From the NCBI GenBank assembly GCA_947627155.1, contig CANQUX010000005.1:13513-77512 (forward strand): a DNA stretch of 64,000 nt. The letters are read 5' to 3'. Source of the DNA: an uncultured Alphaproteobacteria bacterium. GTDB taxonomy: Bacteria; Pseudomonadota; Alphaproteobacteria; CAAHEQ01; UBA3637. Positions 1 through 57,712 of this stretch are shown here, one piece after another; within the stretch, counting starts at the first letter, position 1; every line of letters starts with the position of its first letter. The position numbers and the translations under genes were made by a program. A model generated the notes under the pieces. The model made no database searches. It was not told where the DNA came from and worked only from the letters and a program-made list of their open reading frames with translations.

Positions 1-846
1 ATTACAACGGGGTCTGCTTGAATCCTTGCAATCCGTATGCTCTATACATTCCACACACTCGTGATTTGCTACATCACAAACAGATCTTGGAGCACTGCAA
101 TTGCCATCTCCCACACACTCCACACACGTATTACTCTCTTTATCGCATACCTGTGACTCTTCACAATCTTCATCTTTTGCACACCAACCTTCGGGACGAT
201 TCGAATCATAATTGCCGTTCACATCCGCCGCATCGAACTCAACATAAATTTCATTATTTTCATCACTGGTACATGAATCACCTCCTGTGTAGGACAAACC
301 ATTGATATCCATTTCCAAACGGCCGTCCATGGCGGCAACAAGCGTTGTGAGGGGCTTACAAACACCTTTTGAAATGTTCCCCACGACAATATAATAAGCA
401 TCTGCCTCACGACAATTATAAAGCTCATTTTTACTCTCTTTATTACCTCTGATGATACAATCATAATCAACGGGATAACGATCATATTGTGTTGATAAAT
501 GCCCGCTGTAATCTTCATTTTCTGGTGTATCATCATAAGGATCACCTAATAACAATTCTTCATTCCCCAAAGCGTATTTTACCTTTAAATCGTTACGCAT
601 TAAGTTAATTTCATTGGCAATTTGATCGGCTTGATAGTAGTTCATGGCTAATTTATAGCCGACAATCCCGCCGATTGATAAAATAGCAATAATGGCGAGC
701 ACCCCGAGCATTTCAATCATGCTCCGCCCGCTTTGCGATTGTGTTTTGATGCTATTTTGCTTTTCTTCTTCCCCGCTCACGATTTGTTCTTTATTTCTTT
801 GCATTTCTGCGTAGTTTAGCTGATTTTTTCTTGCATATTTCGTCAT
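1..846 (-). CDS. Modular type IV pilin-like protein, paralog A. Partial: start codon at 846, 3' end lies beyond the window start. Carries a prepilin-type N-terminus followed by Cys-rich repeats
   Basis: Reverse-strand translation from the ATG at 846 gives MTKYARKNQ...SQSG|RSMIEMLGVLAIIAILSIGGIVGYKLAMNYYQADQIANEINLMRNDLKVKYALGNEELLLGDPYDD.... This is >95% identical to paralog D over about 270 aa. It then becomes C-like (CVEC..DC..P.C) repeats. A conserved RBS (aaagggag) and leader lie upstream. It is missing from the ORF track only because no stop codon falls in the window. Confidence 0.7.
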   Translation of the reverse strand, partial: MTKYARKNQLNYAEMQRNKEQIVSGEEEKQNSIKTQSQSGRSMIEMLGVLAIIAILSIGGIVGYKLAMNYYQADQIANEINLMRNDLKVKYALGNEELLLGDPYDDTPENEDYSGHLSTQYDRYPVDYDCIIRGNKESKNELYNCREADAYYIVVGNISKGVCKPLTTLVAAMDGRLEMDINGLSYTGGDSCTSDENNEIYVEFDAADVNGNYDSNRPEGWCAKDEDCEESQVCDKESNTCVECVGDGNCSAPRSVCDVANHECVECIEHTDCKDSSRPRCN

Positions 847-1038: not shown

Positions 1039-1077
1039 TTTTTGTGCAACACTCCCCAAAATAAAACTCTTTTTTGC

Positions 1078-1105
1078 TTGACATTATTTTGAATATCCTT
1101 ATACT
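1078..1105 (+). promoter_or_regulatory. Sigma70-like promoter (TTGACA-16 bp-TATACT) firing rightward toward the IR hairpin and repeat R1
   Basis: Consensus -35 TTGACA at 1078-1083 and -10 TATACT at 1100-1105. Confidence 0.4.
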
Positions 1106-1192
1106 TTTAGACAGGGTAACTGATATGCGCCCCCAAAGTGTAAACTTTTCTTGTAAAAGAATAGATTTTATGCTTTTTTTATAAAACCGGAT

Positions 1193-1255
1193 GATCGAAA
1201 GATGGTAAGATTTAGTATTAACATTATTTCGAATGATAATTACCATCTTTCGGTC
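1193..1255. repeat. 16 bp inverted repeat (GATCGAAAGATGGTAA / TTACCATCTTTCGGTC, 15/16 matches) with an about 31 nt spacer; predicted large hairpin
   Basis: Direct inspection of the sequence. Confidence 0.6.
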
Positions 1256-1333
1256 GCCTCTCATTAAAGTCATTATTTTTTCTCTATTGTTCACAATATT
1301 TTCCCCCTTTTAACAGGCGATGATTCTTTTCTT

Positions 1334-1672
1334 TTATTTTCGACGGAAAGTGCTGTCCCGTGAAACGTGGGATAGCGCGGTGTGCCGAAAATAAGAAACG
1401 GAAAGCAGCAATATTGATATTTTCTCTGATTTTCGGCACATAGCGGGACGTCACTTTTCGCGACGTCCCACACCCGCCGAGAATCAGAGAAAGGAAGCAA
1501 GGCAAACAGATAATTTTTCTCTTTCATGGGTGAAAATCGTGTTGTTAAGCAATTTTCCCCTTTGTCGGTGGGTGGAAAGTAATGAAACACTCCCTCTTTT
1601 CCTCTATCGGCGGGTGTGATGCGCTGCTGAAAGGAGCGCATCGCTATGGGCCGATAGGAGAAAATGAGCGGC
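1334..1672. repeat. GC-rich structured repeat element R, copy 1 (about 339 bp). Candidate ncRNA or regulatory element; the second copy is at 48563..48902
   Basis: About 93% nucleotide identity to copy 2. It contains several perfect or near-perfect hairpins: GGGACGTCACTTTTCGCGACGTCCC, GATGCGCT..AGCGCATC, and TCTCTGATTTTCGG..CCGAGAATCAGAGA. GC content is far above that of the surrounding intergenic DNA. Confidence 0.6.
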
Positions 1673-1685
1673 AGGCGGGCTGGTC

Positions 1686-3098
1686 TCACTCACATAACGC
1701 GGAGTAGGAGGCGTTGCCATTGGTGGTGTAGACGTAACCATAGTCAAGGGAGACGTTGTACGCGAAGCAGGAATCTATTTTATTTTCCAACCAGACTCTG
1801 TCTCTTGTCTTACTGCTAAAATCATCTTTCAAATCCGTCCTTGTCTGACTGTTACATGTGCCAAGCCCCACCACACTGCCACACCCGATGCTTGCCCGCG
1901 TTGCTTGCTTCCTTCCTAATGCCTCGCAGAACCGCCCTGCACTCCACCAGTTCATCTCCGTACTTTCTGCATCTTCCGGCCACGCTAATGCAAAGCCGGT
2001 TTTCTTTCCTATTACTTTATCTTTGCTCGCATTCCGGCATTCACTCTTATGAAAGCTATTTCCTCCAAATTTATTAGGGTCAAATTCTTTGCCGTCACCA
2101 CATTGATACCCCCAATACATGTAGCAATACTCTCCCAGCCCGCAATCAGCATTGCTTTCGCATTCTCCGACGCGCTCCTTATCACATCCGCCGTTTTCAA
2201 GTGATGCTTTCCATTCTTTACTTGTGTCACTGCTACAAACGCATTTTCCACCCTCCGGTTTACTGTCTTCCGGACATTCTGTGCATTTAGTGCCGTCCCA
2301 ATATGGTGTAGCAGTGCTGCATACACAGTCTTCGCCATCTTCGCTAAGCTCTGCTCCCGCCGGACAAGCACACTTTCTACCGGTCCATACCTTTCCGCCC
2401 GAACAACCCGCGCAACAGCCGCCGTTACAGGTTTTCTCGGTGTCCTCACAGGTGCATTCGCCCTTATCGTCACTCAACGTTGTACCTCTCGGACATTCTG
2501 CCGGCACGGGGTCATCATCTTGCGGCGCATCGCCTTGTTCCGTGTCTGTTGGCGGATTGCTGCTTCCGCCGCTCACCCCGCCTATATCTTTGGTCGAAAA
2601 GGCGACCATTACTTCATTCGTTTCACCGCAGAAATTATCCTGCTCATCATAATAACTTTTGTCACCTATTTTTATATCAGCCGTATCGTCCATGTTATCT
2701 AACAAGGCTACCAACGGTTTACACACTCCCTCAGGAATGTTTGATAACGTAAACGAATAGCCTTTTTCCGTTTCACCCAATATCTCAATCGGATAAGCTA
2801 TCTCAATGCCATAATTACTGCCAAAATTTAAGTGTTTTTCATCGTCGTATGGCGAGCCGAGCAATAATTCGTCCACCCCGCGCGCAACTTTCATTTTTGC
2901 ATCGGTACGCATCAGGTTAATTTCATTTGCAATCTGATTCGCTTGATATCGATTCATGGCCATTCTGTATCCTGCTATACCGCCAATGCTTAACACCCCG
3001 ATAATAGCCAAAACGCCCAACATTTCAATCATTGAACGGCCTTCTTGAGCTTGATTTTGAACTTGTTTGAACTCTTTTTTCTTTATTTTATTGCTCAT
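1686..3098 (-). CDS. Modular type IV pilin-like protein, paralog B (470 aa). Domains in order: prepilin-type N-terminus, Cys-rich region, C-terminal C-type-lectin-like domain
   Basis: The N-terminus QEG|RSMIEMLGVLAIIGVLSIGGIAGY has the prepilin peptidase site and Glu+5. Many CxxC/DC motifs follow. The C-terminus MNWWSAGRFCEALG...SALCE is CTLD-like. An RBS and the conserved leader lie upstream. Confidence 0.8.
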   Translation of the reverse strand: MSNKIKKKEFKQVQNQAQEGRSMIEMLGVLAIIGVLSIGGIAGYRMAMNRYQANQIANEINLMRTDAKMKVARGVDELLLGSPYDDEKHLNFGSNYGIEIAYPIEILGETEKGYSFTLSNIPEGVCKPLVALLDNMDDTADIKIGDKSYYDEQDNFCGETNEVMVAFSTKDIGGVSGGSSNPPTDTEQGDAPQDDDPVPAECPRGTTLSDDKGECTCEDTEKTCNGGCCAGCSGGKVWTGRKCACPAGAELSEDGEDCVCSTATPYWDGTKCTECPEDSKPEGGKCVCSSDTSKEWKASLENGGCDKERVGECESNADCGLGEYCYMYWGYQCGDGKEFDPNKFGGNSFHKSECRNASKDKVIGKKTGFALAWPEDAESTEMNWWSAGRFCEALGRKQATRASIGCGSVVGLGTCNSQTRTDLKDDFSSKTRDRVWLENKIDSCFAYNVSLDYGYVYTTNGNASYSALCE

Positions 3099-3288: not shown

Positions 3289-3303
3289 TTTTTGATGCAT
3301 ATT

Positions 3304-3330
3304 CAAAAAAAATCGCCTTGATGAGAGGCG
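3304..3330 (-). terminator. Putative Rho-independent terminator on the minus strand (CGCCTCTCATCAAGGCG hairpin followed by a T-run). No upstream minus-strand gene is evident
   Basis: GC stem with an A8 run on the plus strand (T-run on minus). Confidence 0.3.
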
Positions 3331-3637
3331 ACCGGAAGTTGCTAACTATCTATTCGACATAGTGCAGTATATTGACCAAAAGGTTTATTTTACTACCTTC
3401 CGGCCAGTTGACCATTTCCTTTTTTGATATCAATCAAAAAAGGCACAATTATTTATCCTTTTTCAAGGATACGAATAGAGAGGTTAGCATACCTCGGGGC
3501 ACACATCACTTGCCTTGCCTTTGAGTATAAAGGCAGTCAAAACTAATGTCAAGCAGAAAATTTGCCTCCTTTCACAAATGAAAAGGCCATTAAAATAACA
3601 ATAAACAAAACAACCGGAGCGTTTTTCAAAAAACAAC

Positions 3638-17319: not shown

Positions 17320-18624
17320 ATGTTTTTTAAAGCACCAAATCCGGTTAAATTAACACAACCGACAACACCAACGGCCATGCCCATACCAACACCCATGCCG
17401 CAACAACAGGCTTCTTTTACACCCGAACCGATACCGAGTGCTCCGGCTCCTTTGCCGGAATCGACGGTACCGCCGGAACAAACGGAAACGCCAGCAATTT
17501 CACCCGTTCAGGTCACAGAAGCACCGGCCGTAAATCCGTATGCAAAACCGGCCGGCTATGTTGAGCCGCAGCAACAGGAACCTGCGCCGGAAACACATGT
17601 TACGGTAAATACTATAGAGCCGCATGAAGAAATTTTACCGAACGGTGATAAAGTCTTCAAGGCAGCTTCTTTAAAAGATGTCAGTTTTTCGGATATTTGG
17701 TATACACCCGAAAAAATAGCCTATATTCGGGATAAATCCACCAAATTTGCACTTATTCCGTTTGAAACGAACGATTTGGAAGATTTTTACAAAATGTTGG
17801 AACAAGGCTATACGGGCGCTTCCTCCTATGCCTGCCGATTTAAAGGCGAATCGTATCGTATCGAACGAGTCGTTACAACAACGGGCATTCAATACAATTG
17901 CCGTAAAATGCCTGTTTCAACACCGAATTTATATACATTGGGCATTCCCGATCCGATTACAAAATATTTGGCAACATTGGCAACGGAAGCCGGCTTAATT
18001 TTGTTTGCCGGTCCGACGGGTATGGGAAAAACAACCACAGCCTCTGCTTTAATGAGAGAATTTTTGGAAAATCACGGCGGCTTTTTATATACGATTGAAG
18101 ATCCGCCGGAAATGCCGCTGGACGGTTTATATCACGCCAGAAACGGCGCATTGGGATTGTGCAAACAATCACCGGTGGAAAACGAGCGCTGGGAAGACGG
18201 CTTAAAATCGGCGTTACGTTCTCGTCCGCGTTATATTTTGGTTGGCGAAATCAGAGCGCCGGAGGTTGCCTCGCAGGTTTTACGGGCAGCCACTTCCGGA
18301 CACTTGGTGTTATCCACCATTCACGCCACCAGCGTGGAAGATGCTTTGAATTCCATGATTAAGTATGCCTCCGGTGCCGGATTAGATGAAAAACTGGTCG
18401 CTGACTTGTTGGCACGCGGTATTTTAGCGGTTGTTCATCAAAAACTGGAAGGTACACTCACATTACACCCTGTTGTTCAAACGTGTTTTGCCAATCCGAA
18501 TCCGTTAATGCCCGATCAAATGCGCAACGCCATTCGGGAGGGACGAATCAGCTTGGGAACTTTAATGGAGGCGCAACAAACAAAATTGTTCCGCGGGGCT
18601 TCCATGTTTAAAGAAATGCGTTAA
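17320..18624 (+). CDS. PilT/VirB11-family secretion ATPase with an about 130 aa Pro-rich N-terminal extension
   Basis: Walker A GPTGMGKTTT, Asp box TIEDPPE, Walker B ILVGEIR, His box GHLVLSTIHA, and PilT-like C-terminal motif MRNAIRE. Confidence 0.75.
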   Translation: MFFKAPNPVKLTQPTTPTAMPIPTPMPQQQASFTPEPIPSAPAPLPESTVPPEQTETPAISPVQVTEAPAVNPYAKPAGYVEPQQQEPAPETHVTVNTIEPHEEILPNGDKVFKAASLKDVSFSDIWYTPEKIAYIRDKSTKFALIPFETNDLEDFYKMLEQGYTGASSYACRFKGESYRIERVVTTTGIQYNCRKMPVSTPNLYTLGIPDPITKYLATLATEAGLILFAGPTGMGKTTTASALMREFLENHGGFLYTIEDPPEMPLDGLYHARNGALGLCKQSPVENERWEDGLKSALRSRPRYILVGEIRAPEVASQVLRAATSGHLVLSTIHATSVEDALNSMIKYASGAGLDEKLVADLLARGILAVVHQKLEGTLTLHPVVQTCFANPNPLMPDQMRNAIREGRISLGTLMEAQQTKLFRGASMFKEMR

Positions 18625-25833: not shown

Positions 25834-27273
25834 ATGGAAGAACAGACACAAATTATCGGCGAGTGGGAAAAAGTATACGGTGCTTTGGAAAAAGAAGTCA
25901 ATAACCGATTGGTTATGAAGTGGCTGAAACGCAGTATTCCCGAAAAAACCGATTCGAATCGCGTTTGTTTGGCCTTTCCGTCTCCCTGTATCGAAGAGGT
26001 GATTAAGCGCAATTATGCACATCAGATTTTAAATATTTGGCAACGGGAAAATCCGGCCGTCACTGCTCTTGATTTTAAAGTTTTATCACCTCAAAATAAA
26101 AATAACAGCGCTCCTTTACCGGCCGCCGACTCTTGTGAATTGCAACCGATTGTCGATTCTGCCGAATCACAACCGATTGTTGTCGATAAAATGAAGCGTT
26201 ACGGCTTCTCAAAGGTTGAAATTGATGTAACGAGCGATAGCGAAACAATTCCCTGTTATTTAGACGAATCGCATACGTTTGATCAATTTGTTGTCGGGCA
26301 ATCAAATGTTTTTGCTTATGAAGCCGCACGCCGGGTGGCCGAAGATGAAAAAGATGTGTTTAATCCGCTTTACATTCATGCGCCGGTGGGATTGGGCAAA
26401 ACGCATTTATTACATGCCGTTGCCTGGCGCGTAAAAGAACTGTATCCCGATAAAAACGTGCTTTATATTTCCTCGGAACAATTTTTCCAATATTTTTTAA
26501 AGGCGTTACGAAACAAAAAAACCGATTCGTTTCGTGATTTATTCCGCGCGGTCGATATTTTAATGATTGATGATATTCAATTTATCTGCGGGAAAAAAGC
26601 AACGCAGGAAGAGTTTTTTCACACGTTTAATCAACTGATTGCCTGCGGGAAAAAAGTGATTTTATCATCCGATTCGCACCCCATGGATCTGGTTGAAATG
26701 CAAGAACGCTTAAAAACCCGTATTGCCCAAGGGCTGGTTGTTCATATTGAGCCGACAACTTATGAATTGCGACTGGGTATTTTACGGGAAAAAGGAAAGC
26801 ATTTACCCGTTCAAATCAGTGACGAAGTTTTAGATTTTCTGGCAAAAAACATTACCGGCAGCATTCGGGAATTGGAAGGGGCATTAAAGCGATTGACGGC
26901 ACATGCGCAAATTATGGGAACGCCCATCAATCCGCAAACCACCCGAAGCGTTTTAAAAGATATGTTGCAAGTTTATGATCGGCAATTTTCAGTAAACGAA
27001 ATTCAACGTGTTACGGCCGATTACTATCATTTAAAATTATCTGACATACAATCATCCCGTCGAGATCGAAAAATTGCGCGGCCGCGGCAAATGGCCATGT
27101 ATTTGGCCAAAACGGCAACGGCTTTATCGCTTCCCGATATCGGTCGGCGATTCGGGCGTGATCACACTACGGTCATGCATGCCGTTAAAACCATTGAAGA
27201 TTTAATGAGTCGGGATAAGCAATTATGCCAAGATAAAGAAAACATTTTAATGCGGTTAAGGGAGGGTGTATGA
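25834..27273 (+). CDS. dnaA: Chromosomal replication initiator protein DnaA
   Basis: AAA+ Walker A GLGKTHLLHAV and a C-terminal DnaA-box-binding domain (MAMYLAK...HTTVMHA). Confidence 0.95.
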   Translation: MEEQTQIIGEWEKVYGALEKEVNNRLVMKWLKRSIPEKTDSNRVCLAFPSPCIEEVIKRNYAHQILNIWQRENPAVTALDFKVLSPQNKNNSAPLPAADSCELQPIVDSAESQPIVVDKMKRYGFSKVEIDVTSDSETIPCYLDESHTFDQFVVGQSNVFAYEAARRVAEDEKDVFNPLYIHAPVGLGKTHLLHAVAWRVKELYPDKNVLYISSEQFFQYFLKALRNKKTDSFRDLFRAVDILMIDDIQFICGKKATQEEFFHTFNQLIACGKKVILSSDSHPMDLVEMQERLKTRIAQGLVVHIEPTTYELRLGILREKGKHLPVQISDEVLDFLAKNITGSIRELEGALKRLTAHAQIMGTPINPQTTRSVLKDMLQVYDRQFSVNEIQRVTADYYHLKLSDIQSSRRDRKIARPRQMAMYLAKTATALSLPDIGRRFGRDHTTVMHAVKTIEDLMSRDKQLCQDKENILMRLREGV

Positions 27274-27990: not shown

Positions 27991-28064
27991 GCGAGTGTAG
28001 CTCAATGGCAGAGCGGAAGCTTCCCAAGCTTAAGACGAGGGTTCGATTCCCTTCACTCGCTCCA
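27991..28064 (+). tRNA. tRNA-Gly (anticodon CCC), 74 nt with CCA encoded
   Basis: Manual cloverleaf: acceptor stem GCGAGTG/CACTCGC, anticodon loop TTCCCAA, T-loop TTCGATT. Confidence 0.85.
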
Positions 28065-28150
28065 TTTTTTTGAATAAGATATCATGCGAAAGTATGTAAA
28101 AATGCAGGGGCATCTACTTTGTTTTGAAATATTTTAAAGCGGAGTTAAAC

Positions 28151-28858
28151 ATGATATATGGCTACATTCGTGTTTCTTCCGACAAGCAAACGTTGGAAAA
28201 TCAAAAATTTGAAATTCGCAAATTTGCTTTACGCAACAGCATTCACATTGATCGCTGGGTTGAAGAAACCATTTCCACGCGCAAACCGCTTGAAAAGCGC
28301 AAATTAAGTCGATTATTAAATATCTTAACGGCAAATGATATTTTAATTACGTCCGAAATATCACGACTGGGGCGTTCATTATTGGAAGTAATGGGTATTT
28401 TACAAAATTGTTTATTAAAGGGGTGTCAAATCTGGACGATTAAAGAAAACTATCGGCTGGGTGCTGATTTACAATCCAAAGTAATGGCATTTGCGTTTGG
28501 TTTATCGGCAGAAATCGAGCGACAACTTATTTCCGATCGCACGCGGTCATCATTGGAAAATTTAAAGGCAAAAGGTATTAAGCTGGGGCGGCCGGTGGGT
28601 GCAAACGGTGCTGTTTTAAAATTACCGGAGAGTTTGGAAAAAATATTTCTTCTGATTAAAAACGGTTGTTCACAAGCCGAAGTTTCACGCATTATGGGTG
28701 TTCACAAGTCAACTATTTGTCGTTTGGTTAAGAAAAATTATCCGGAACTGATGGAAGAGGAAGAAGATTTATTGTTTACGTTGGAATCGCCACTCTCCGT
28801 TCCGTCCGATTTAATGCTTGATTCAACAACTTATCCGCCGTCTACAAACGAAAATTAA
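28151..28858 (+). CDS. Serine recombinase of the resolvase/invertase family
   Basis: N-terminal catalytic motif YGYIRVSSDKQ and a C-terminal HTH region. RBS-supported ATG at 28151. Confidence 0.85.
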   Translation: MIYGYIRVSSDKQTLENQKFEIRKFALRNSIHIDRWVEETISTRKPLEKRKLSRLLNILTANDILITSEISRLGRSLLEVMGILQNCLLKGCQIWTIKENYRLGADLQSKVMAFAFGLSAEIERQLISDRTRSSLENLKAKGIKLGRPVGANGAVLKLPESLEKIFLLIKNGCSQAEVSRIMGVHKSTICRLVKKNYPELMEEEEDLLFTLESPLSVPSDLMLDSTTYPPSTNEN

Positions 28859-30054
28859 AAATGCTTCGGCAACCGGCGTTGACGAGGAGTAACAATACCT
28901 AACTCCATCAATCGTTTCATATATAATGACCCGCGAATAAATAAAATTTTTTCAGGCGGAATTAAAAAATACAAAGAAGAAGTAAATCCGCCGACCCAAT
29001 CGGGTTCATGACCGGTTAAGAAAAACGCTTCAACAGGAATTTGAGAATTAAGCGTATCATATTTCGGAAGAGCTTTTTGCAACAAATGACATTCTTTTTT
29101 GGCACTATAAGAAGGATGGCATTTTAAAAACACACGCGCAGGAATATTTTTGAAAAAAGAGAAAACACTTATTTCCTGATTGACTGATTTTTCATTTCCG
29201 AAAAAATATCCGGCAGTTAAAAACACCTTTTTTTGCGGCGTTGATAAAGCTTGAACGGTTACCGAATCAATTTCAAAAAAATGCTCCAACAACTTTTTTT
29301 CATGCGGAGCAAGCCGAGCAGCTTCCGATTTTAAACTGATATTTTTAATATTCTTACGACCTATCCAATTGACAAACGTTTTTAATTTTTTATCTTTAAT
29401 AATTTCATCAGCACGACACAAATGGTAGGTAGCCGGCACCAACTTTCCGATAGAAGCTTTCCAAAATGCCACATCTTCATTTTTAATTTCACTGAAAAAA
29501 TTCGGATTTTTTTCAAAATTCCGTAAAATTTTAACATCGGGTTTAAACCGCATCCAAAAACCATATTCATTCCCGATAACATTACAAGCGCCGTCTTCAT
29601 ATAAATGAATATGCTCAATTCGAGAGGGGAGTTCTTTAATCAGCCGTAACAAGAAATAGCGCGTTTGATTGATATTTGAATAAACTTCAAATTGAGCTTT
29701 CGGATATCGATCGGCAATTCTTTTTAATGTTTTGATAAAAGAAGCCGAATGATACCCCCATAAACCTTCCGACGCCGCCAGATTAACTTCAACGGCATTT
29801 ATTTTGGATAAATCAAAAATTCTTGCGCGATTGGGGTAGCGATGAAAGAAAAAAACTTTTAATTCATTTTTTTCATGAGCCGCTTTAATAAATTCCACAC
29901 TTTCCCAAAGAACAGGTGAAGTAGCATAAACTTCAAAAAAAACTTTAATTTTACGAATATGTTGGGGGGGGGGGGTATTGTATAAGCATAAGAGAAGAAC
30001 GGTCAAAACCGTTAAAATAAATGTCTTTAAAAAAACTCTAACGGAATGTTTCAC
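28855..30054 (-). CDS. Membrane-anchored hypothetical protein with a C12 tract in codons 26-30. Possibly a glycosyltransferase-like LOS-modifying enzyme (uncertain); candidate for phase variation
   Basis: N-terminal signal-anchor. The poly-C tract encodes TPPPQ. No confident family assignment was possible by eye. Confidence 0.5.
   Translation of the reverse strand: MKHSVRVFLKTFILTVLTVLLLCLYNTPPPQHIRKIKVFFEVYATSPVLWESVEFIKAAHEKNELKVFFFHRYPNRARIFDLSKINAVEVNLAASEGLWGYHSASFIKTLKRIADRYPKAQFEVYSNINQTRYFLLRLIKELPSRIEHIHLYEDGACNVIGNEYGFWMRFKPDVKILRNFEKNPNFFSEIKNEDVAFWKASIGKLVPATYHLCRADEIIKDKKLKTFVNWIGRKNIKNISLKSEAARLAPHEKKLLEHFFEIDSVTVQALSTPQKKVFLTAGYFFGNEKSVNQEISVFSFFKNIPARVFLKCHPSYSAKKECHLLQKALPKYDTLNSQIPVEAFFLTGHEPDWVGGFTSSLYFLIPPEKILFIRGSLYMKRLMELGIVTPRQRRLPKHF
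29964..29975. repeat. Homopolymeric G12 tract (C12 on the coding strand) inside the 5' end of the 28855..30054 CDS
   Basis: Counted directly in the sequence. Confidence 0.9.
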
Positions 30055-48342: not shown

Positions 48343-48497
48343 AAACGTACCTTTAATGCAACGCGGATTCCGGGGCAAAATTACCTTTAAAAAGCAAAAA
48401 ATCACCCTTAAAAAACAATCGAAAAATCAATGAATTCCGGCCAAAATAAATTTTTTTTGAAAAAATCAAAAAAAAGTGTTGCAAAAATCGTACGTTT
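48343..48497 (-). promoter_or_regulatory. Conserved IR-flanked leader segment of paralog C
   Basis: Arms at 48343-48362 and 48478-48497. Confidence 0.5.
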
Positions 48498-48562
48498 AAT
48501 TGAGGAAAGAGAAGCAGGGAAAATATGTTTGTTTTATTTGGTATTCGTTGGGCTACTCTCTG

Positions 48563-48902
48563 TTATTTTCGGCGGGAAGTGCTGTCCCGTGAAACGTGGG
48601 ACAGCGCGGTGTGCCGAAAATAAGAAACGGAAAGCGGCAATATTGATATTTTCTCTGATTCTCGACACATAGCAGGACGTCACTTTTCACGACGTCCCAC
48701 ACCCGCCGAGAATCAGAGAAAGGAAGCAAGGCCAACAGATAACTTTTCTCTTTCATGGTTGAAAATTGTGTTGTTAACGAACTTCCCCCTTTTGTCGGTG
48801 GGTGGAAAGTAATGAAACACTTCCTCTTTTCCTCTATCGGCGGATGTGATGCGCTGCTGAAAGGAGCGCATCGCTATGGGCCGATAGGGGGAAAGTGAGC
48901 GG
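48563..48902. repeat. GC-rich structured repeat element R, copy 2; lies between the divergent leaders of paralogs C and D
   Basis: About 93% identical to 1334..1672, with a compensatory change in the TCTCTGATT(C/T)TCG(A/G) stem. Confidence 0.6.
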
Positions 48903-48929
48903 TTTATTTTGGGAAGCGTTGCACAAATT

Positions 48930-49085
48930 AAACGTACGATTTTTGCAACACTTTTTTTTGATTTTTTCAAAAAAAATTTATTTTGGACGGAATTCATTGA
49001 TTTTTCGAGTGTTTTTTAAGGGTGAATTTTGGCAGTTTGAAGGCAAATTTTGCCCCCGAAACTGCGTTGCATTAAAGGTACGTTT
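48930..49085 (+). promoter_or_regulatory. Conserved IR-flanked leader segment of paralog D
   Basis: Arms AAACGTACGATTTTTGCAAC (48930-48949) and GTTGCATTAAAGGTACGTTT (49066-49085). Confidence 0.5.
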
Positions 49086-49121: not shown

Positions 49122-50669
49122 ATGACAAGACAATTCAAAAAAAATCAATTAAAACAATTTCAAAATCAAGCGCAACAAGGCCGGTCAATGGTTGAAATGC
49201 TCGGCGTACTGGCTATTATTGCTATTTTGTCAATCGGCGGGATTGTCGGCTATAAATTAGCCATGAATTATTATCAGGCCGATCAGATTGCGAATGAAAT
49301 TAACTTAATGCGTAACGATTTAAAGGTTAAATACGCTTTGGGAAATGAAGAATTGTTGCTCGGGGATCCTTATGATGATACACCAGAAAATGAACATTAC
49401 CGCGGGCATTTATCAACACAATATGATCGTTATCCCGTTGATTATGATTGCATCATCAGAGGTAATAAAGAGAGTAAAAATGAGCTTTATAATTGCCGCG
49501 AAGCAGATGCTTATTATATTGCCGTGGGGAACATTTCAAAGGGTGTTTGTAAACCGCTTACAACGCTTGTTGCCGCCATGGACGGCCGTTTGGAAATGGA
49601 TATCAATGGTTTGTCCTACACAGGAGGTGATTCATGTACCAGTGATGAAAATAATGAAATTTATGTTGAATTCGATGCGGCGGATGTAAACGGCAATTAC
49701 GATTCGGGGCGCCCAAAAGGCTGGTGTGCCAAAGATGACGATTGCGAAGGATTATCAACCCCTGTTTGCGATAAGGAAAACAATACGTGTGTGGAATGTA
49801 CGGAAAATACGCATTGCGCCTCAAATATATGTCGGAAAGATCACACTTGCGGTGAATGCACAAAAGATTCGGATTGTGTCAATCCGCGCCCGATATGCGA
49901 TACGGAATCGGCAACATGTATGAGATGTGCTGTTGACGATGAATGTCAAAGAGCCAACGTGAATAAACCTGTTTGCGACATGGGTACCGGCGCTTGTTGC
50001 GATGATCCGCTCATGACATGGAATGGCAGCGAATGCGTTTGCCCCGAAGATTATGCCAAATCGGAAACCAGTTCCGGTCAAGCTATTTGTTTACCTTATT
50101 GCGAGGAAAATAATATCGGTATTATTTTAATGACGGATACTTCCGGCTCAATGACTCTGCAAATGTTTGAAAATGCCAACAAAGCCAAAGAGGCGCTTCA
50201 TATTCCGGAAGATATTCCGTCAGCCGTTTATTGGTGTGCTGCTTGTTATGATGCACATTGTTTGAAAAACACGCCATCCGGTCCGGTAAATGAACATCTT
50301 TCTTACGGAAAACATTCTGTCAGTGAAATTCGCGCTGCTCTTCAAACAAATGTATCGGACAGGCTCAAAGTAACCGGTGATTTTGGTGGCAGTATTTATA
50401 AAATTATGGATTATTGCTCAACCATTAAAGAAAAACTCATTATTATTGTTTGGTGGGATAATCAAAAACCGGCCGATACCGGTAATGATATACCTGCATT
50501 TTCAAAATTGAAAGAAAAATGCCCCGAAACGGTTATTTATAATGTATCACCGAATGCCAAATCATTTGCAAGCGCTGATAAATCTTTTGATTTAAATGAC
50601 ATTACAACGGAATATACGGAAGTTTTAAATCAATTCATTCAAAAAGAAGGTTGTGTTGAGCGAGAATAA
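49122..50669 (+). CDS. Modular type IV pilin-like protein, paralog D (515 aa). Domains in order: prepilin N-terminus, Cys-rich repeats, C-terminal vWA-like domain
   Basis: MTRQFKKNQLKQFQNQAQQG|RSMVEMLG...; vWA MIDAS-like motif IILMTDTSGSMT. Confidence 0.8.
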   Translation: MTRQFKKNQLKQFQNQAQQGRSMVEMLGVLAIIAILSIGGIVGYKLAMNYYQADQIANEINLMRNDLKVKYALGNEELLLGDPYDDTPENEHYRGHLSTQYDRYPVDYDCIIRGNKESKNELYNCREADAYYIAVGNISKGVCKPLTTLVAAMDGRLEMDINGLSYTGGDSCTSDENNEIYVEFDAADVNGNYDSGRPKGWCAKDDDCEGLSTPVCDKENNTCVECTENTHCASNICRKDHTCGECTKDSDCVNPRPICDTESATCMRCAVDDECQRANVNKPVCDMGTGACCDDPLMTWNGSECVCPEDYAKSETSSGQAICLPYCEENNIGIILMTDTSGSMTLQMFENANKAKEALHIPEDIPSAVYWCAACYDAHCLKNTPSGPVNEHLSYGKHSVSEIRAALQTNVSDRLKVTGDFGGSIYKIMDYCSTIKEKLIIIVWWDNQKPADTGNDIPAFSKLKEKCPETVIYNVSPNAKSFASADKSFDLNDITTEYTEVLNQFIQKEGCVERE

Positions 50670-50695: not shown

Positions 50696-50783
50696 TGGCG
50701 GAGAGTACAGGACTCGAACCTGTGCATCCTTTTAGGGGATGACGGATTAGCAATCCGCTGCATTACCGCTCTGCCAACTCTCC
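50696..50783 (-). tRNA. tRNA-Ser (anticodon GCU), class II with a long variable arm, 88 nt
   Basis: Manual cloverleaf: acceptor stem GGAGAGT/ACTCTCC, anticodon loop TTGCTAA, variable arm CATCC..GGATG, T-loop TTCGAGT. Confidence 0.85.
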
Positions 50784-50831: not shown

Positions 50832-51131
50832 TTAATATGCAAATATTTTTTGTATAATCTCTACAATCTGCCGATGAATTTGATCGGGCAACAAACCGAT
50901 TTTCAGTTTTAAATCTTTTTGATTAACGGGTTGAATTAAATCCATGGCAATATAGGCTTTTTTTCCACGTAATCCGATTCCGACCCGCGTCGGTAATTGA
51001 CTGGAACTAACGGTGATAGGAGCTACCAAAGCATACGGCAATGCCTCGTTTAATTCATCGGGCGAAACAATTAAACAAGGCTTTTCAACACCTTGAAACA
51101 CACCCATATAAACTTCAAATCTTTTTACCAT
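50832..51131 (-). CDS. mazF: MazF/PemK-family toxin (mRNA interferase)
   Basis: MVKRFEVYMGVFQGVEKPCLIVSPDELNEALPYALVAPITVSS. Confidence 0.7.
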   Translation of the reverse strand: MVKRFEVYMGVFQGVEKPCLIVSPDELNEALPYALVAPITVSSSQLPTRVGIGLRGKKAYIAMDLIQPVNQKDLKLKIGLLPDQIHRQIVEIIQKIFAY

Positions 51132-51340
51132 ATCCACTCCGCTTGCCAATTTTGTTGTCCGTTTAAATCGGGATGAATTTTCTCGCGCCAATTTGCCCGA
51201 TCTTGACTTTGAGCCGTTAAAATAACGCGTTTTTGTTCAACCGTTAAATTGATTTCCGATTCAAATCCGCATTCGGCAATCACGCTTTTAGGCAATCGAA
51301 TGCCGTGTGAATTTCCTATTTTCGTGAGTTTCACAAGCAT
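51125..51340 (-). CDS. mazE: MazE/AbrB-family antitoxin
   Basis: LTKIGNSHGIRLPKSVIAE matches the SpoVT/AbrB swapped-hairpin motif. Overlaps the toxin start. Confidence 0.65.
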   Translation of the reverse strand: MLVKLTKIGNSHGIRLPKSVIAECGFESEINLTVEQKRVILTAQSQDRANWREKIHPDLNGQQNWQAEWIW

Positions 51341-55466: not shown

Positions 55467-56339
55467 TTATTTTTTTAAGGCGCCGCCGACACTGATTCGT
55501 TGTAAAATAACATCTAATTGATCGGCAGATTGACAATCAATAATTACTTTTCCCGTTAATCCCGCCCAATGAATGGAAATTTTGGTATTCAACAATGCGC
55601 TGAATTGAGCTGCTAACGATTCAATATGTTTATTTTTTTCTTTTTGAACCGGTTGTGCTTTATTTTTTTGAGTTGCCAATTTTTCGGTTTGACGCACATT
55701 TAATCCCTTTTTAATAACCTCGCGAGATAGGATAACGGGATTATCGGCAGCCAATAAAGCACGCGCATGTCCGACCGTAATTTCCTTTTTTTCCAACAAT
55801 GTTTTAATTTCTTCGGGTAAATCCAATAAACGCATCATATTTGCCAAATAACTTCGGCTTTTACCGATCACACGGGATAAATCTTCCTGTTTATAATGAA
55901 ATTCTTTAATTAAACGTTTATAAGCTTCGGCTTCCTCCAACGGATTTAAATCCTCCCGTTGTAAATTTTCAATAATGGCAACTTCCAATGCTTCTTTATC
56001 GGTCAAATTTTTAACAATAACGGGAATTTTGGTTAATCCCGCCATTTTGGAAGCCCGAAATCGACGCTCTCCGGCAATAATTTCATATAAATTATTTCGA
56101 GCGCTTTTTCGCACCAATAAAGGTTGTAACACACCTTTTTCTTTAATGGAAACAACTAAATCCGCCAATGCTTCGGTGGTAAAAACACGACGCGGTTGAA
56201 AAGAACCGGCAACCAGTTCAGAAATATCTTTATATAAAACAGTATTAACGGAATCATTTTGAACAACCGGTGTTTCCTCAAACTCTTCATCTCCCATCAA
56301 TGTTTGTAAACCCCGCCCTAATCCTAAATTTTTATCCAT
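55467..56339 (-). CDS. parB: Chromosome partitioning protein ParB
   Basis: ParB box GERRFRA and an HTH. Confidence 0.9.
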   Translation of the reverse strand: MDKNLGLGRGLQTLMGDEEFEETPVVQNDSVNTVLYKDISELVAGSFQPRRVFTTEALADLVVSIKEKGVLQPLLVRKSARNNLYEIIAGERRFRASKMAGLTKIPVIVKNLTDKEALEVAIIENLQREDLNPLEEAEAYKRLIKEFHYKQEDLSRVIGKSRSYLANMMRLLDLPEEIKTLLEKKEITVGHARALLAADNPVILSREVIKKGLNVRQTEKLATQKNKAQPVQKEKNKHIESLAAQFSALLNTKISIHWAGLTGKVIIDCQSADQLDVILQRISVGGALKK

Positions 56340-57111
56340 TTAATAACTCCTTTTCTCTGTTTAAAATTTCTGCCGCCAATCGAATATAACTTTTGGCTCC
56401 CATACTTTTCACATCGTATATAATAACCGGTTTTCCATGCGACGGCGCTTCCGGAATACGAACGTTTCGGGGAATAATCGTATCATAAACATAGTCTTTA
56501 AAATAAGACTTCACATCAGCCACAATTGATTTTGATAAATTGGAACGACCGTCAAACATTGTCATGACAATTCCGTGTAATGCCAATTTTGCATTAAAGT
56601 TTTGTTGCACTTTTTGAATGGTTTTCATTAAATCGGCAACACCTTCCAAAGCTAAATATTCGCATTGAACCGGTATAATCACATAATCGGAAGCCACAAG
56701 CGCATTTAACGTTAATAAACCGACGGCGGGCGGACAATCAATAAAAACATAATCAAAATCTTTAATATCTTTTAAAGCTTTTTTCAAAAAGAATTGCGGC
56801 TTTTTTTTATCGGCCAATTCAATATCAATACCTAATAATTCTTTGCCGGAAGGCATAATATATAGTTGGGGAATTTGTGTTTCGACAATCACATCCGATA
56901 AAGAATTATGTCCCGTGATAAAGGTGTAAGAATTCAATCCTTTTTTTCTTTTAGAACCGACACTGACAGTTGCATTTCCCTGCGGATCCAAATCAATAAT
57001 CAAAACTTTCTTTCCGATAGCAGCTAAAGCCGTTGCCAAATTGACGGTTGTTGTTGTTTTTCCAACCCCTCCTTTTTGATTTGAAACTGAAAAAATACGT
57101 GGTTTAATCAT
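56332..57111 (-). CDS. parA: Chromosome partitioning ATPase ParA
   Basis: Deviant Walker A NQKGGVGKTTT; start MIKPRIF. Confidence 0.9.
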   Translation of the reverse strand: MIKPRIFSVSNQKGGVGKTTTTVNLATALAAIGKKVLIIDLDPQGNATVSVGSKRKKGLNSYTFITGHNSLSDVIVETQIPQLYIMPSGKELLGIDIELADKKKPQFFLKKALKDIKDFDYVFIDCPPAVGLLTLNALVASDYVIIPVQCEYLALEGVADLMKTIQKVQQNFNAKLALHGIVMTMFDGRSNLSKSIVADVKSYFKDYVYDTIIPRNVRIPEAPSHGKPVIIYDVKSMGAKSYIRLAAEILNREKELLNG

Positions 57112-57712
57112 TATTTTTAACCTCTGATATTTGAACAATATAACTTCCGTTAATACCGGCCGAACAGGTCGTATGAAAAGATTTTTCAATATCTTTTATT
57201 TCTTCCGATACTTTTTCTCCTTTTAATAACAAATAAACGGTCTTTTCCTTAAAAAAAGAATAACCGTATTGAAGAATACGATCAATTTGAGCAAATCCGC
57301 GTGCTGTAATCACATCGGCTTTCAACTGTTTTACATTTTCTATTCTGTCATTGACAATATGAACATTCACACCTAATTCTCGGGCAGCTTCCTGCAAAAA
57401 AACACATTTTCGACCATCACTTTCAATTAAATAAAAATCGGTTAAATTTCCCTTTAAACATTTATTTAAAACAGCTAAAACCAAAGCCGGAAAACCGCCG
57501 CCTGATCCGAAATCAACCAAAACTTTCGCATTTGTCGGTATATAAAAATAAAGTTGAGCGGAATCTAAAATATGACGTATCCATAAATTTTTAATATCAT
57601 TTTTTGAAACAAGATTCAGTGCTTTTTGCCAGCGCAAAATTATTGTTTCATATTGCTTCAAAAGTTTGACGGCCGGCTTAATTTTTTGACTTAATTGTTC
57701 CATGTGAAACAT
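57104..57712 (-). CDS. rsmG: 16S rRNA m7G527 methyltransferase RsmG (GidB)
   Basis: SAM-binding motif DFGSGGGFP; context with parAB. Confidence 0.85.
   Translation of the reverse strand: MFHMEQLSQKIKPAVKLLKQYETIILRWQKALNLVSKNDIKNLWIRHILDSAQLYFYIPTNAKVLVDFGSGGGFPALVLAVLNKCLKGNLTDFYLIESDGRKCVFLQEAARELGVNVHIVNDRIENVKQLKADVITARGFAQIDRILQYGYSFFKEKTVYLLLKGEKVSEEIKDIEKSFHTTCSAGINGSYIVQISEVKNND

Follow-up and report, generated by a model that had tools for sequence, protein, structure and literature searches.

The stretch of DNA analyzed here, 64 kb of contig CANQUX010000005.1 from an uncultured Alphaproteobacteria bacterium (the window), contains two GC-rich copies of an element of about 340 nt, both located next to genes of pilin-like proteins (genes A to D). 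We consider it very probable that each copy is not one RNA but a cluster of three hairpin modules of ~80 nt with one half-module remnant. The modules are a gene-family-specific palindromic hairpin repeat: a family of constrained structure whose members form the non-coding borders of pilin-like gene units. An earlier note, made from the sequence alone, had proposed a novel structured RNA; this apparent large RNA is a new palindromic repeat family, and its annotation as a single RNA gene is unwarranted.

The two copies (1324–1670 and 48553–48900) align over ~340 nt with 21 substitutions and one 1-nt indel; the resulting identity of ~93.5% agrees with the ~93% reported earlier, and the homology stops abruptly at both ends. 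Their GC content (0.47 and 0.49) stands out against 0.30–0.33 in the adjacent intergenic DNA and 0.40 window-wide, as the earlier note had described. Strong structure was also confirmed: as RNA, the plus strand of positions 1334–1672 folds with −142.5 kcal/mol compared to −98.6 ± 5.4 kcal/mol in dinucleotide shuffles (z −8.2), the minus strand folds with −127.9 kcal/mol (z −8.2, likewise against dinucleotide shuffles), and every hairpin listed previously is present. The long-range pairing CCGAAAAT...ATTTTCGG corresponds to the arms of two neighbouring modules cross-pairing. The U-G to C-G change described for copy 2 is real (position 1432), but the claim that the altered stem pairs perfectly is only nearly right, because a further change in copy 2, G>A at 1436, disrupts the final pair of the same stem on the plus strand. 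A search of Rfam (release 15) was consistent with the claim that no known RNA family is involved: at gathering thresholds it returned two tRNAs only for the window and left the element unmatched, and at E ≤ 10 the element gave chance microRNA and snoRNA matches only, the best scoring 23 bits against thresholds of 56–80.

Each module is a long hairpin of ~80–90 nt, consisting of an outer stem, an asymmetric internal loop, an inner stem and a small apical loop. The outer stem comprises 11 bp and can be lengthened to ~20 bp by pyrimidine-rich and purine-rich flanks; the internal loop is conserved (5′ GG(G)RWGUG, 3′ CGCKRUGKG), and the inner stem of 9–10 bp is variable in sequence. The arms form terminal inverted repeats of 11–21 bp, e.g., TTTATTTTTCTTATTTTCGGC / GCCGAAAATAAGAAAAATAAA. 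An in-register alignment of 69 distinct modules shows invariant positions in the loop, and the base of the conserved stem reads TCGGC / GCCGA in all 69. This one loop is common to three arm types (..CTATCGG, ..ATTCTCGG and ..ATTTTCGG) and to at least six inner-stem sequences that are unrelated to one another.

RNAalifold and pair counts over the 69 modules indicate that 95.7% and 95.8% of the cells in the two stems are paired, and that sliding the partners by 1–3 columns lowers this fraction to ~40–56%. Double-sided changes occupy 356 cells versus 137 ± 10 in column shuffles, and compensated double changes occur at 12 of the 20 stem pairs, both stems being represented; the earlier suggestion of selection-like changes preserving structure is thereby upheld. 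Individual modules fold with z from −2.3 to −8.8 as DNA and with ~−43 kcal/mol on average as RNA.

A covariance model (R1) built from the 69-module alignment and run on the window with filters off recovered exactly six modules, all at the two pilin loci, while everything else scored below 20 bits. The middle module, M2, is oriented opposite to M1 and M3; in copy 1 its R1 score is 84 bits for the minus strand and 33.7 bits for the plus strand. The half-module remnant, read from the sequence in the 94-nt spacer between M2 and M1 (1497–1590), resembles the 5′ half of the module consensus; an equivalent remnant precedes the TCTA-type module in copy 2 (about 48783–48807) and in L126 (L-numbers designate the sampled loci). 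In copy 1, a distance of 15 nt separates the end of M1 from the gene B stop codon. In copy 2, M1 is followed by the junction GAGCGGTTTATTTTGGGAAGCGTTGCAC into the gene D leader, and the same junction occurs in L053, L056, L087 and L126.

Further members of the family were reached through a spurious open reading frame (ORF) of 132 aa overlapping copy 1, which was usable as a search handle because gene callers had predicted it as a protein. Its relatives led to contigs with a core of ~60–65 nt repeated directly after pilin-like stop codons. A pattern scan of 185,579 species genomes matched at least 104 DNA stretches; among those listed, the true matches belong to rabbit-gut (‘Lapin’) metagenome-assembled genomes (MAGs) labelled uncultured Alphaproteobacteria, and a few further ones lie on contigs probably mis-binned into other MAGs of the same rabbit-gut study. 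Most pattern matches were chance occurrences in GC-rich genomes and were rejected by R1, which found no module in 19 GC-rich control loci matching the raw pattern. The model detected 96 further modules at 40 bits or more in 24 rabbit-gut loci. Two longer loci (22 kb and 11.6 kb), reached through distant members of the protein family, consist of ordinary genes with exactly one module each, next to the pilin-like gene. No module was found in the other intergenic regions of the window, L125 and L126. BLAST searches of plasmid and phage collections yielded no match, and a pattern scan with R1 gave no convincing relative in viral and JGI metagenome contig collections; the sequence behind a 44-bit R1 match in L115 is a short Bacteroidales-like hairpin without relation to the modules. 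A literature search brought up nothing specific on this gene family or repeat. As far as the databases searched show, the family appears to be confined to one lineage of uncultured rabbit-gut Alphaproteobacteria. Short-read assemblies break at pilin-like/module loci because of the repeats and the gene family, so the system is poorly represented in MAGs. One locus, L025 (1–8000), combines one long pilin-like ORF with 16 modules at 40 bits or more and additional weaker matches, and may be a graveyard of degraded cassettes or a repeat-expansion zone.

The proteins encoded by genes A to D share a prepilin-like N-terminus (..GRSMIEMLGVLAII..), a long Cys-rich region and a C-terminal domain that has ..WWSA.RFCEAL.. 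and in most cases ends in ..ALCE. Family members are 450–720 aa long, with 1263 relatives at E ≤ 1e-5 in the protein database; no Pfam match was obtained, and prepilin models gave sub-threshold matches only. The paralogs are mosaic, their N-terminal halves being 89–91% identical and the remainder divergent, and they may constitute a variable surface or adhesin family. The link to these genes proposed in the earlier note was confirmed at both window loci and in relatives: 19 of 24 module-bearing loci have a recognisable pilin-like gene no more than ~1 kb from the modules, and the other five are at contig ends or carry a PUL element (see below), a gene fragment or a Cys-rich ORF. Neighbours of the sampled loci include housekeeping genes and genes for ankyrin-repeat proteins.

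The first module lies 10–40 nt after the stop codon in most loci. Two junctions recur. One consists of the ..ALCE stop codon, a GC-rich linker of ~25 nt and a TCTA-type module, and is also found in L005, L040 and L050. At the other, a module is followed after 34 nt by the −35 box of PUL, a conserved structured RNA-like element of ~215 nt just upstream of pilin-like leaders, or directly by the distal leader end (GGTTTATTTTRGG..GTTGCAC). Each pilin-like gene possesses its own conserved leader with promoter-like boxes, and the genes are arranged in tandem, divergently or convergently. The leaders of genes C and D (48372–48501 and 48926–49055) are 130-nt inverted repeats, 92% complementary and 424 nt apart, enclosing the module cluster; the segment between them could flip by homologous recombination.

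All but one of the 69 modules fold better as RNA on one strand, by ~10 kcal/mol (mean −42.7 versus −32.6 kcal/mol). In the 20 core stem pairs, read on the better-folding strand, 64 G·U and 29 A·C wobbles were counted, with more G·U in 34 modules and more A·C in 9; the oppositions of the loop region comprise 203 G·U and no A·C. Folded as single-stranded DNA, the strands differ by 2–3 kcal/mol only. Such asymmetry is the usual signature of a structure used single-stranded on one strand, mattering mostly for RNA. The better-folding strand is antisense to the pilin-like gene in 3′-flank modules and co-directional with it in upstream modules.

In L005 and L041 the modules are located between the stop codon and a canonical bidirectional terminator. 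Terminators of this kind part the modules from neighbouring genes in L005, L041 and L126, so that no transcript carrying the better-folding strand is obvious. Terminator prediction gave no site within the window clusters or at their ends, and the 3′ flanks of modules are purine-rich in both orientations. Canonical terminators are present elsewhere in this genome: gene D, which has no module, is followed by one directly after its stop codon. Gene B has modules and no canonical terminator in the region scanned (down to position 700). Positions are collected in Table 1.

Table 1. Coordinates of pilin-like genes, modules, PUL elements and neighbouring features. Positions refer to the window unless a locus is named; for modules, the strand is the better-folding (model-sense) one.
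Feature	Position	Strand	Details
Pilin-like gene A, 5′ part	1..846	-	3′ end outside the window
PUL, degenerate inverted copy	1070..1300	+	terminator stem lost; from BLAST and alignment to intact copies
Module M3, copy 1	1324..1404	+	arms ATTTTCGG/CCGAAAAT, inner hairpin CTGTCCCGTGAAACGTGGGAYAG; R1 80.4 bits, E 1e-19
Module M2, copy 1	1417..1496	-	arms ATTCTCGG/CCGAGAAT, inner hairpin GGGACGTCGCGAAAAGTGACGTCCC
Half-module remnant	1553..1577	+	TTTTCCCCTTTGTCGGTGGGTGG
Module M1, copy 1	1591..1670	+	arms CTATCGG/CCGATAG, inner hairpin GATGCGCTGCTGAAAGGAGCGCATC; R1 77.6 bits
Pilin-like gene B	1686..3098	-	470 aa; prepilin-like N-terminus ..GRSMIEMLGVLAII.., Cys-rich C-terminal part, ends ..ALCE
PUL, intact, upstream of gene B leader	3296..3560	-	promoter TTGACA-N17-TATACT, terminator GGTCGCCTCTCATCAAGGCGA then T8
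Pilin-like gene C	46759..48306	-	515 aa
Module M3, copy 2	48553..48633	+	R1 84.8 bits
Module M2, copy 2, inverted	48646..48725	-	R1 79.8 bits
Module M1, copy 2	48821..48900	+	R1 83.7 bits
Pilin-like gene D	49122..50669	+	515 aa; no 3′ module
tRNA / toxin region after gene D	50699-50783, 50832-51191, 51125-51340	-
Origin-neighbourhood and secretion genes	25834-27273, 55467-57712, 43142-45325, 17320-18624
PUL in L041	859-1122
PUL in L020	5598-5860
PUL in L040	461-715
PUL in L054	2190-2448
PUL in L015	6779-7032
PUL in L024	33-291
PUL in L050	230-490
PUL in L073	4190-4453
PUL in L017	210-473

As for function, we infer, with confidence somewhat short of an even chance, that the modules act in cis as boundary hairpins of the pilin-like cassettes, similar to repetitive extragenic palindromic (REP) sequences and bacterial interspersed mosaic elements (BIMEs). 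They are most probably part of the 3′ region of pilin-like mRNA, since those in the 3′ flank lie between the stop codon and the first canonical terminator, where there is one, and the module-less gene D has its terminator at the stop codon. Modules of the 3′ flank would then be transcribed with the pilin-like mRNA and provide it with a stable 3′ hairpin. REP/BIME and other stable hairpins at the 3′ end slow the degradation of transcripts by 3′ exonucleases, and hairpin repeats resembling miniature inverted-repeat transposable elements (MITEs) can alter the stability or ends of adjacent transcripts. By analogy with REP/BIME, the −33 kcal/mol hairpin would affect the position of the 3′ end and the decay of the pilin-like mRNA. 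In DNA, the modules are natural recombination substrates because near-identical palindromes are present at every paralog; they might serve to duplicate, invert and reshuffle cassettes and clusters, and the rearrangement footprints described below fit this role.

Several points weigh against a cis-acting role. Template switching from one palindrome arm to the other can yield compensatory changes without selection on RNA. The pilin mRNA would carry the weaker hairpin, because the better-folding strand is antisense in the 3′ flank. The orientation rule is weak evidence for function and has little statistical weight, since it can be explained by descent from two ancestral junctions. Genes C and D have no 3′ modules, so modules are not obligatory. 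Finally, no U run follows the module hairpins, which therefore are not canonical intrinsic terminators.

Other roles were considered and set aside. Insulation against read-in transcription was suggested by the better-folding strand facing inward on both sides of the gene, but it is weakened by the bidirectional terminators that already part the modules from their neighbours (L005, L041 and L126) and by the same two inherited junctions. Modules serving as a sponge for CsrA/RsmA would be expected to expose GGA, which is not conserved in the loops. By eye, the internal loop does not fit a K-turn or another named loop motif.

A rather unlikely alternative is that the modules are selfish or hitch-hiking palindromic DNA similar to MITEs or to REP doublets forming hairpins (REPINs), without host function, spread by local duplication or by a trans-acting transposase targeting them and carried along with duplicating cassettes. 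Hairpin-forming inverted arms, several sub-families, tandem clusters of variable length (including the 16 modules in the 8-kb L025) and the existence of half-modules and chimeras are all consistent with this explanation. The changes between copies 1 and 2 look near neutral, with no clear wobble bias, and REPINs are described as hairpin-forming miniature mobile DNA of similar size (PMC3116915). However, the modules are not spread over the whole genome: all informative copies adjoin a pilin-like gene or its PUL element or leader. The earlier note had taken additional copies in unrelated contexts, lacking structural covariation, as the mark of a selfish repeat; many further copies were indeed found, but they sit next to pilin-like genes and covary clearly. 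Target-site duplications are not visible, as no recurring direct repeat accompanies the palindrome ends in ~40 copies with flanks. Neither a transposase, a REP-associated tyrosine transposase (RAYT; Y1 HUH) nor a reverse transcriptase was found among the ORFs of the 64-kb window or beside the sampled loci. The internal loop is kept across sub-families with wholly changed stems, and the spacing at the stop-codon and PUL-promoter junctions is fixed.

Several signs of DNA rearrangement are seen at these loci. The ends of the segment common to both window copies coincide exactly with module ends, and chimeric modules with non-matching arms occur in L003 (1840–1919) and L020 (5508–5587). An inverted ATTC-type module is present in the window and in L003, but in L041, L015 and L006 this module is not inverted. 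The junction located 34 nt ahead of the PUL −35 box is occupied by modules of different types. In a strain with 98% identity (Logan DRR848775; L120, 1–558), a different pilin-like 3′ end, in opposite orientation, is found at window position 3569. This position is the border of the unit formed by PUL and gene B, and in DRR848775 the different pilin-like end abuts the SNF transporter gene there; the difference is a strain-level inversion or cassette replacement.

Such footprints raise the possibility, unlikely in our assessment, that the modules are structure-specific recombination sites or enhancers for pilin-like gene variation. Border modules would supply homology or a folded protein-binding site for gene conversion, inversion or cassette exchange, in a role like that of Sma/Cla at Neisseria pilE/pilS or with an architecture like that of integron attC. 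The modules bracket gene units in inverted orientation, and the mosaic paralogs, the breakpoints at module ends, the chimeric modules and the strain-level difference at a unit border all point in this direction. So does the attC-like architecture, with two helices, an asymmetric spacer, a variable tip and a better-folding antisense strand. On the other hand, the attC signature (RYYYAAC / GTTRRRY) is absent, the clusters combine several modules with no intervening genes, each gene is equipped with a leader and promoter of its own, and silent promoterless donor copies were not identified. No recombinase is linked to the loci: neither a tyrosine recombinase in the window nor a recurrent recombinase or transposase beside the sampled loci was found. 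The window does encode a serine recombinase (28124–28858, plus strand; 244 aa, Resolvase and HTH_38 domains), which favors this explanation by its presence but lies 20–25 kb from either pilin locus. It adjoins a tRNA gene (27991–28061) and a sialyltransferase-like gene (28855–30054), nothing ties it to the pilin loci, and it could be an invertase or island integrase.

We further speculate, as a long shot, that the modules are folded strand-specific sites read through their internal loop by a candidate recombinase or nuclease and delimiting exchangeable pilin-like cassettes. If true, this would be attC-like, structure-directed cassette shuffling for surface-protein variation in a gut alphaproteobacterium of intracellular type, with the PUL RNA as its regulatory part.

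A single RNA, whether non-coding or cis-regulatory, that covers the ~340-nt unit and is driven on the plus strand by the promoter at 1078 is highly improbable. The region as a whole folds very well (z −8.2), and at locus 1 a near-consensus promoter (1078–1105; 11 of 12 consensus matches) points into the cluster. Read-through from it into M3, M2 and M1 is plausible, because the degenerate PUL copy has lost its terminator. M3 and M1 are in the better-folding orientation on the plus strand, and several relatives repeat the order TCTA-ATTC-ATTT. However, the relatives hold from 1 to 8 or more modules in varied order and orientation, and between copies 1 and 2 the divergence of the spacers is about double that of the modules (9/106 versus 11/241 positions). 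The promoter and the hairpin at 1193–1255 that the earlier note had placed upstream of the element both exist, but they belong to the degenerate PUL copy and have no counterpart at locus 2. The two copies share neither promoter nor terminator, and the postulated single RNA gene or leader gives way to three independent modules of ~80 nt, the middle one inverted.

Protein coding by the 132-aa ORF (1291–1689, minus strand), already thought unlikely in the earlier note, is effectively refuted: although this ORF overlaps the gene B stop codon by 4 nt, as in translational coupling, and has similar ORFs predicted in three other assemblies (36–60% identity), it is open in copy 1 and split by a frameshift in copy 2, substitutions fall 5, 12 and 4 at codon positions 1, 2 and 3 with no third-position excess, its ‘homologs’ differ by module-sized insertions and deletions, the same modules occur in both orientations and all frames, and it has no Pfam match. 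The short plus-strand ORF described at the start of each copy lacks a conserved start codon.

Compared with the module cluster, PUL has the better prospects of being a genuinely new structured RNA. Besides the intact copy upstream of the gene B leader, it was found at ten other loci, with a near-consensus family promoter (TTGACA-N17-TATWCT). It comprises a long closing helix, a second long-range helix, two internal hairpins and an intrinsic terminator, and the long-range helices show many compensatory changes, e.g., at pairs 39-187, 40-186, 48-179 and 51-176 to 53-174. The segment GACCGGAAG has two possible partners, one inside its own hairpin and the other, CTTCCGGTC, at the base of the terminator; the latter pairing, of 9 bp, could compete with terminator formation, and the alternation suggests a switch of attenuator or riboswitch-like type. 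Rfam contains no match to PUL, and the element may be a new attenuator, riboswitch-like leader or small RNA.

The window also contains dnaA, parB, parA and gidB, i.e., the neighbourhood of the chromosomal origin, together with genes for a type IV secretion coupling protein (TraG/TrwB-like) and a T2SSE-family secretion ATPase. Taken together with the ankyrin-repeat proteins of related loci, this gene content suggests a host-cell-associated lifestyle. Gene D is directly followed by a tRNA gene, a MazF/PemK-like toxin gene and a small upstream partner ORF; such tRNA and toxin content is typical of island borders. Should the modules influence the ends of transcripts or promote the rearrangement of cassettes, they would take part in surface variation in an uncultured, probably host-cell-associated gut bacterium.

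The family is unusual in being tied to one multigene family, in its constant internal loop with fully replaced stems and in its clear strand asymmetry. REP-type repeats form hairpins in single-stranded DNA or mRNA (PMC3116915). With REP/BIME and REPIN of E. coli and Pseudomonas, which are mobilised by RAYT, the modules have in common short imperfect palindromes giving hairpins in single-stranded DNA or RNA, several sub-families per genome, clusters in both orientations with short linkers and a position often just after stop codons, and one REPIN is approximately the size of one module. However, REP sequences are 20–40 nt long and carry a GTAG-type motif, whereas each module is one hairpin of 80–90 nt with a conserved asymmetric internal loop. 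REP and REPIN have a cognate RAYT gene flanked by the repeats; for the modules, no such gene was found among the ORFs of the window and the sampled neighbours. REP and REPIN copies are ‘randomly distributed in extragenic space’ (PMC3116915), in contrast to modules, which are restricted to the flanks of one gene family.

Correia elements of Neisseria, enterobacterial ERIC/IRU and Rickettsia palindromic elements resemble the modules in a length of ~100 nt, inverted arms and long hairpins, and MITE-like hairpin repeats and modules are both lineage-specific. The modules differ from them by tandem clusters and by having neither a visible target-site duplication nor dispersed copies in unrelated contexts, and no transposase of a parent insertion sequence was found in the window or at the sampled loci. 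Unlike Rickettsia palindromic elements, they do not insert into coding sequence.

Sma/Cla is a conserved repeat of ~65–80 nt directly 3′ of variable pilin family members in Neisseria pilE/pilS (PMC4023411). The likeness is one of position, a module following the stop codon in most loci, and no sequence relationship is expected. The PUL RNA upstream of pilin-like genes similarly parallels the small cis-acting RNA upstream of Neisseria pilE. However, the modules are hairpins, occur in multiples and are also found upstream. Sma/Cla enhances gene conversion; for the modules, such an effect would be conjectural.

Integron attC sites share with the modules a location at the 3′ end of a gene unit, a conserved structure with free stem sequence, two paired regions separated by an unpaired asymmetric spacer, a variable tip and a better-folding strand antisense to the gene. 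In attC, however, the boxes are RYYYAAC/GTTRRRY, while the modules have TCGGC / GCCGA at the stem base and, unlike attC, stand several in a row without a cassette between them. Integrons possess an integrase, attI and a common promoter; the module loci have none of these, and their genes use their own promoters and run in varied directions. As the modules fall outside REP/REPIN, MITE, attC and intrinsic terminators alike, we file them as a gene-family-specific palindromic repeat.

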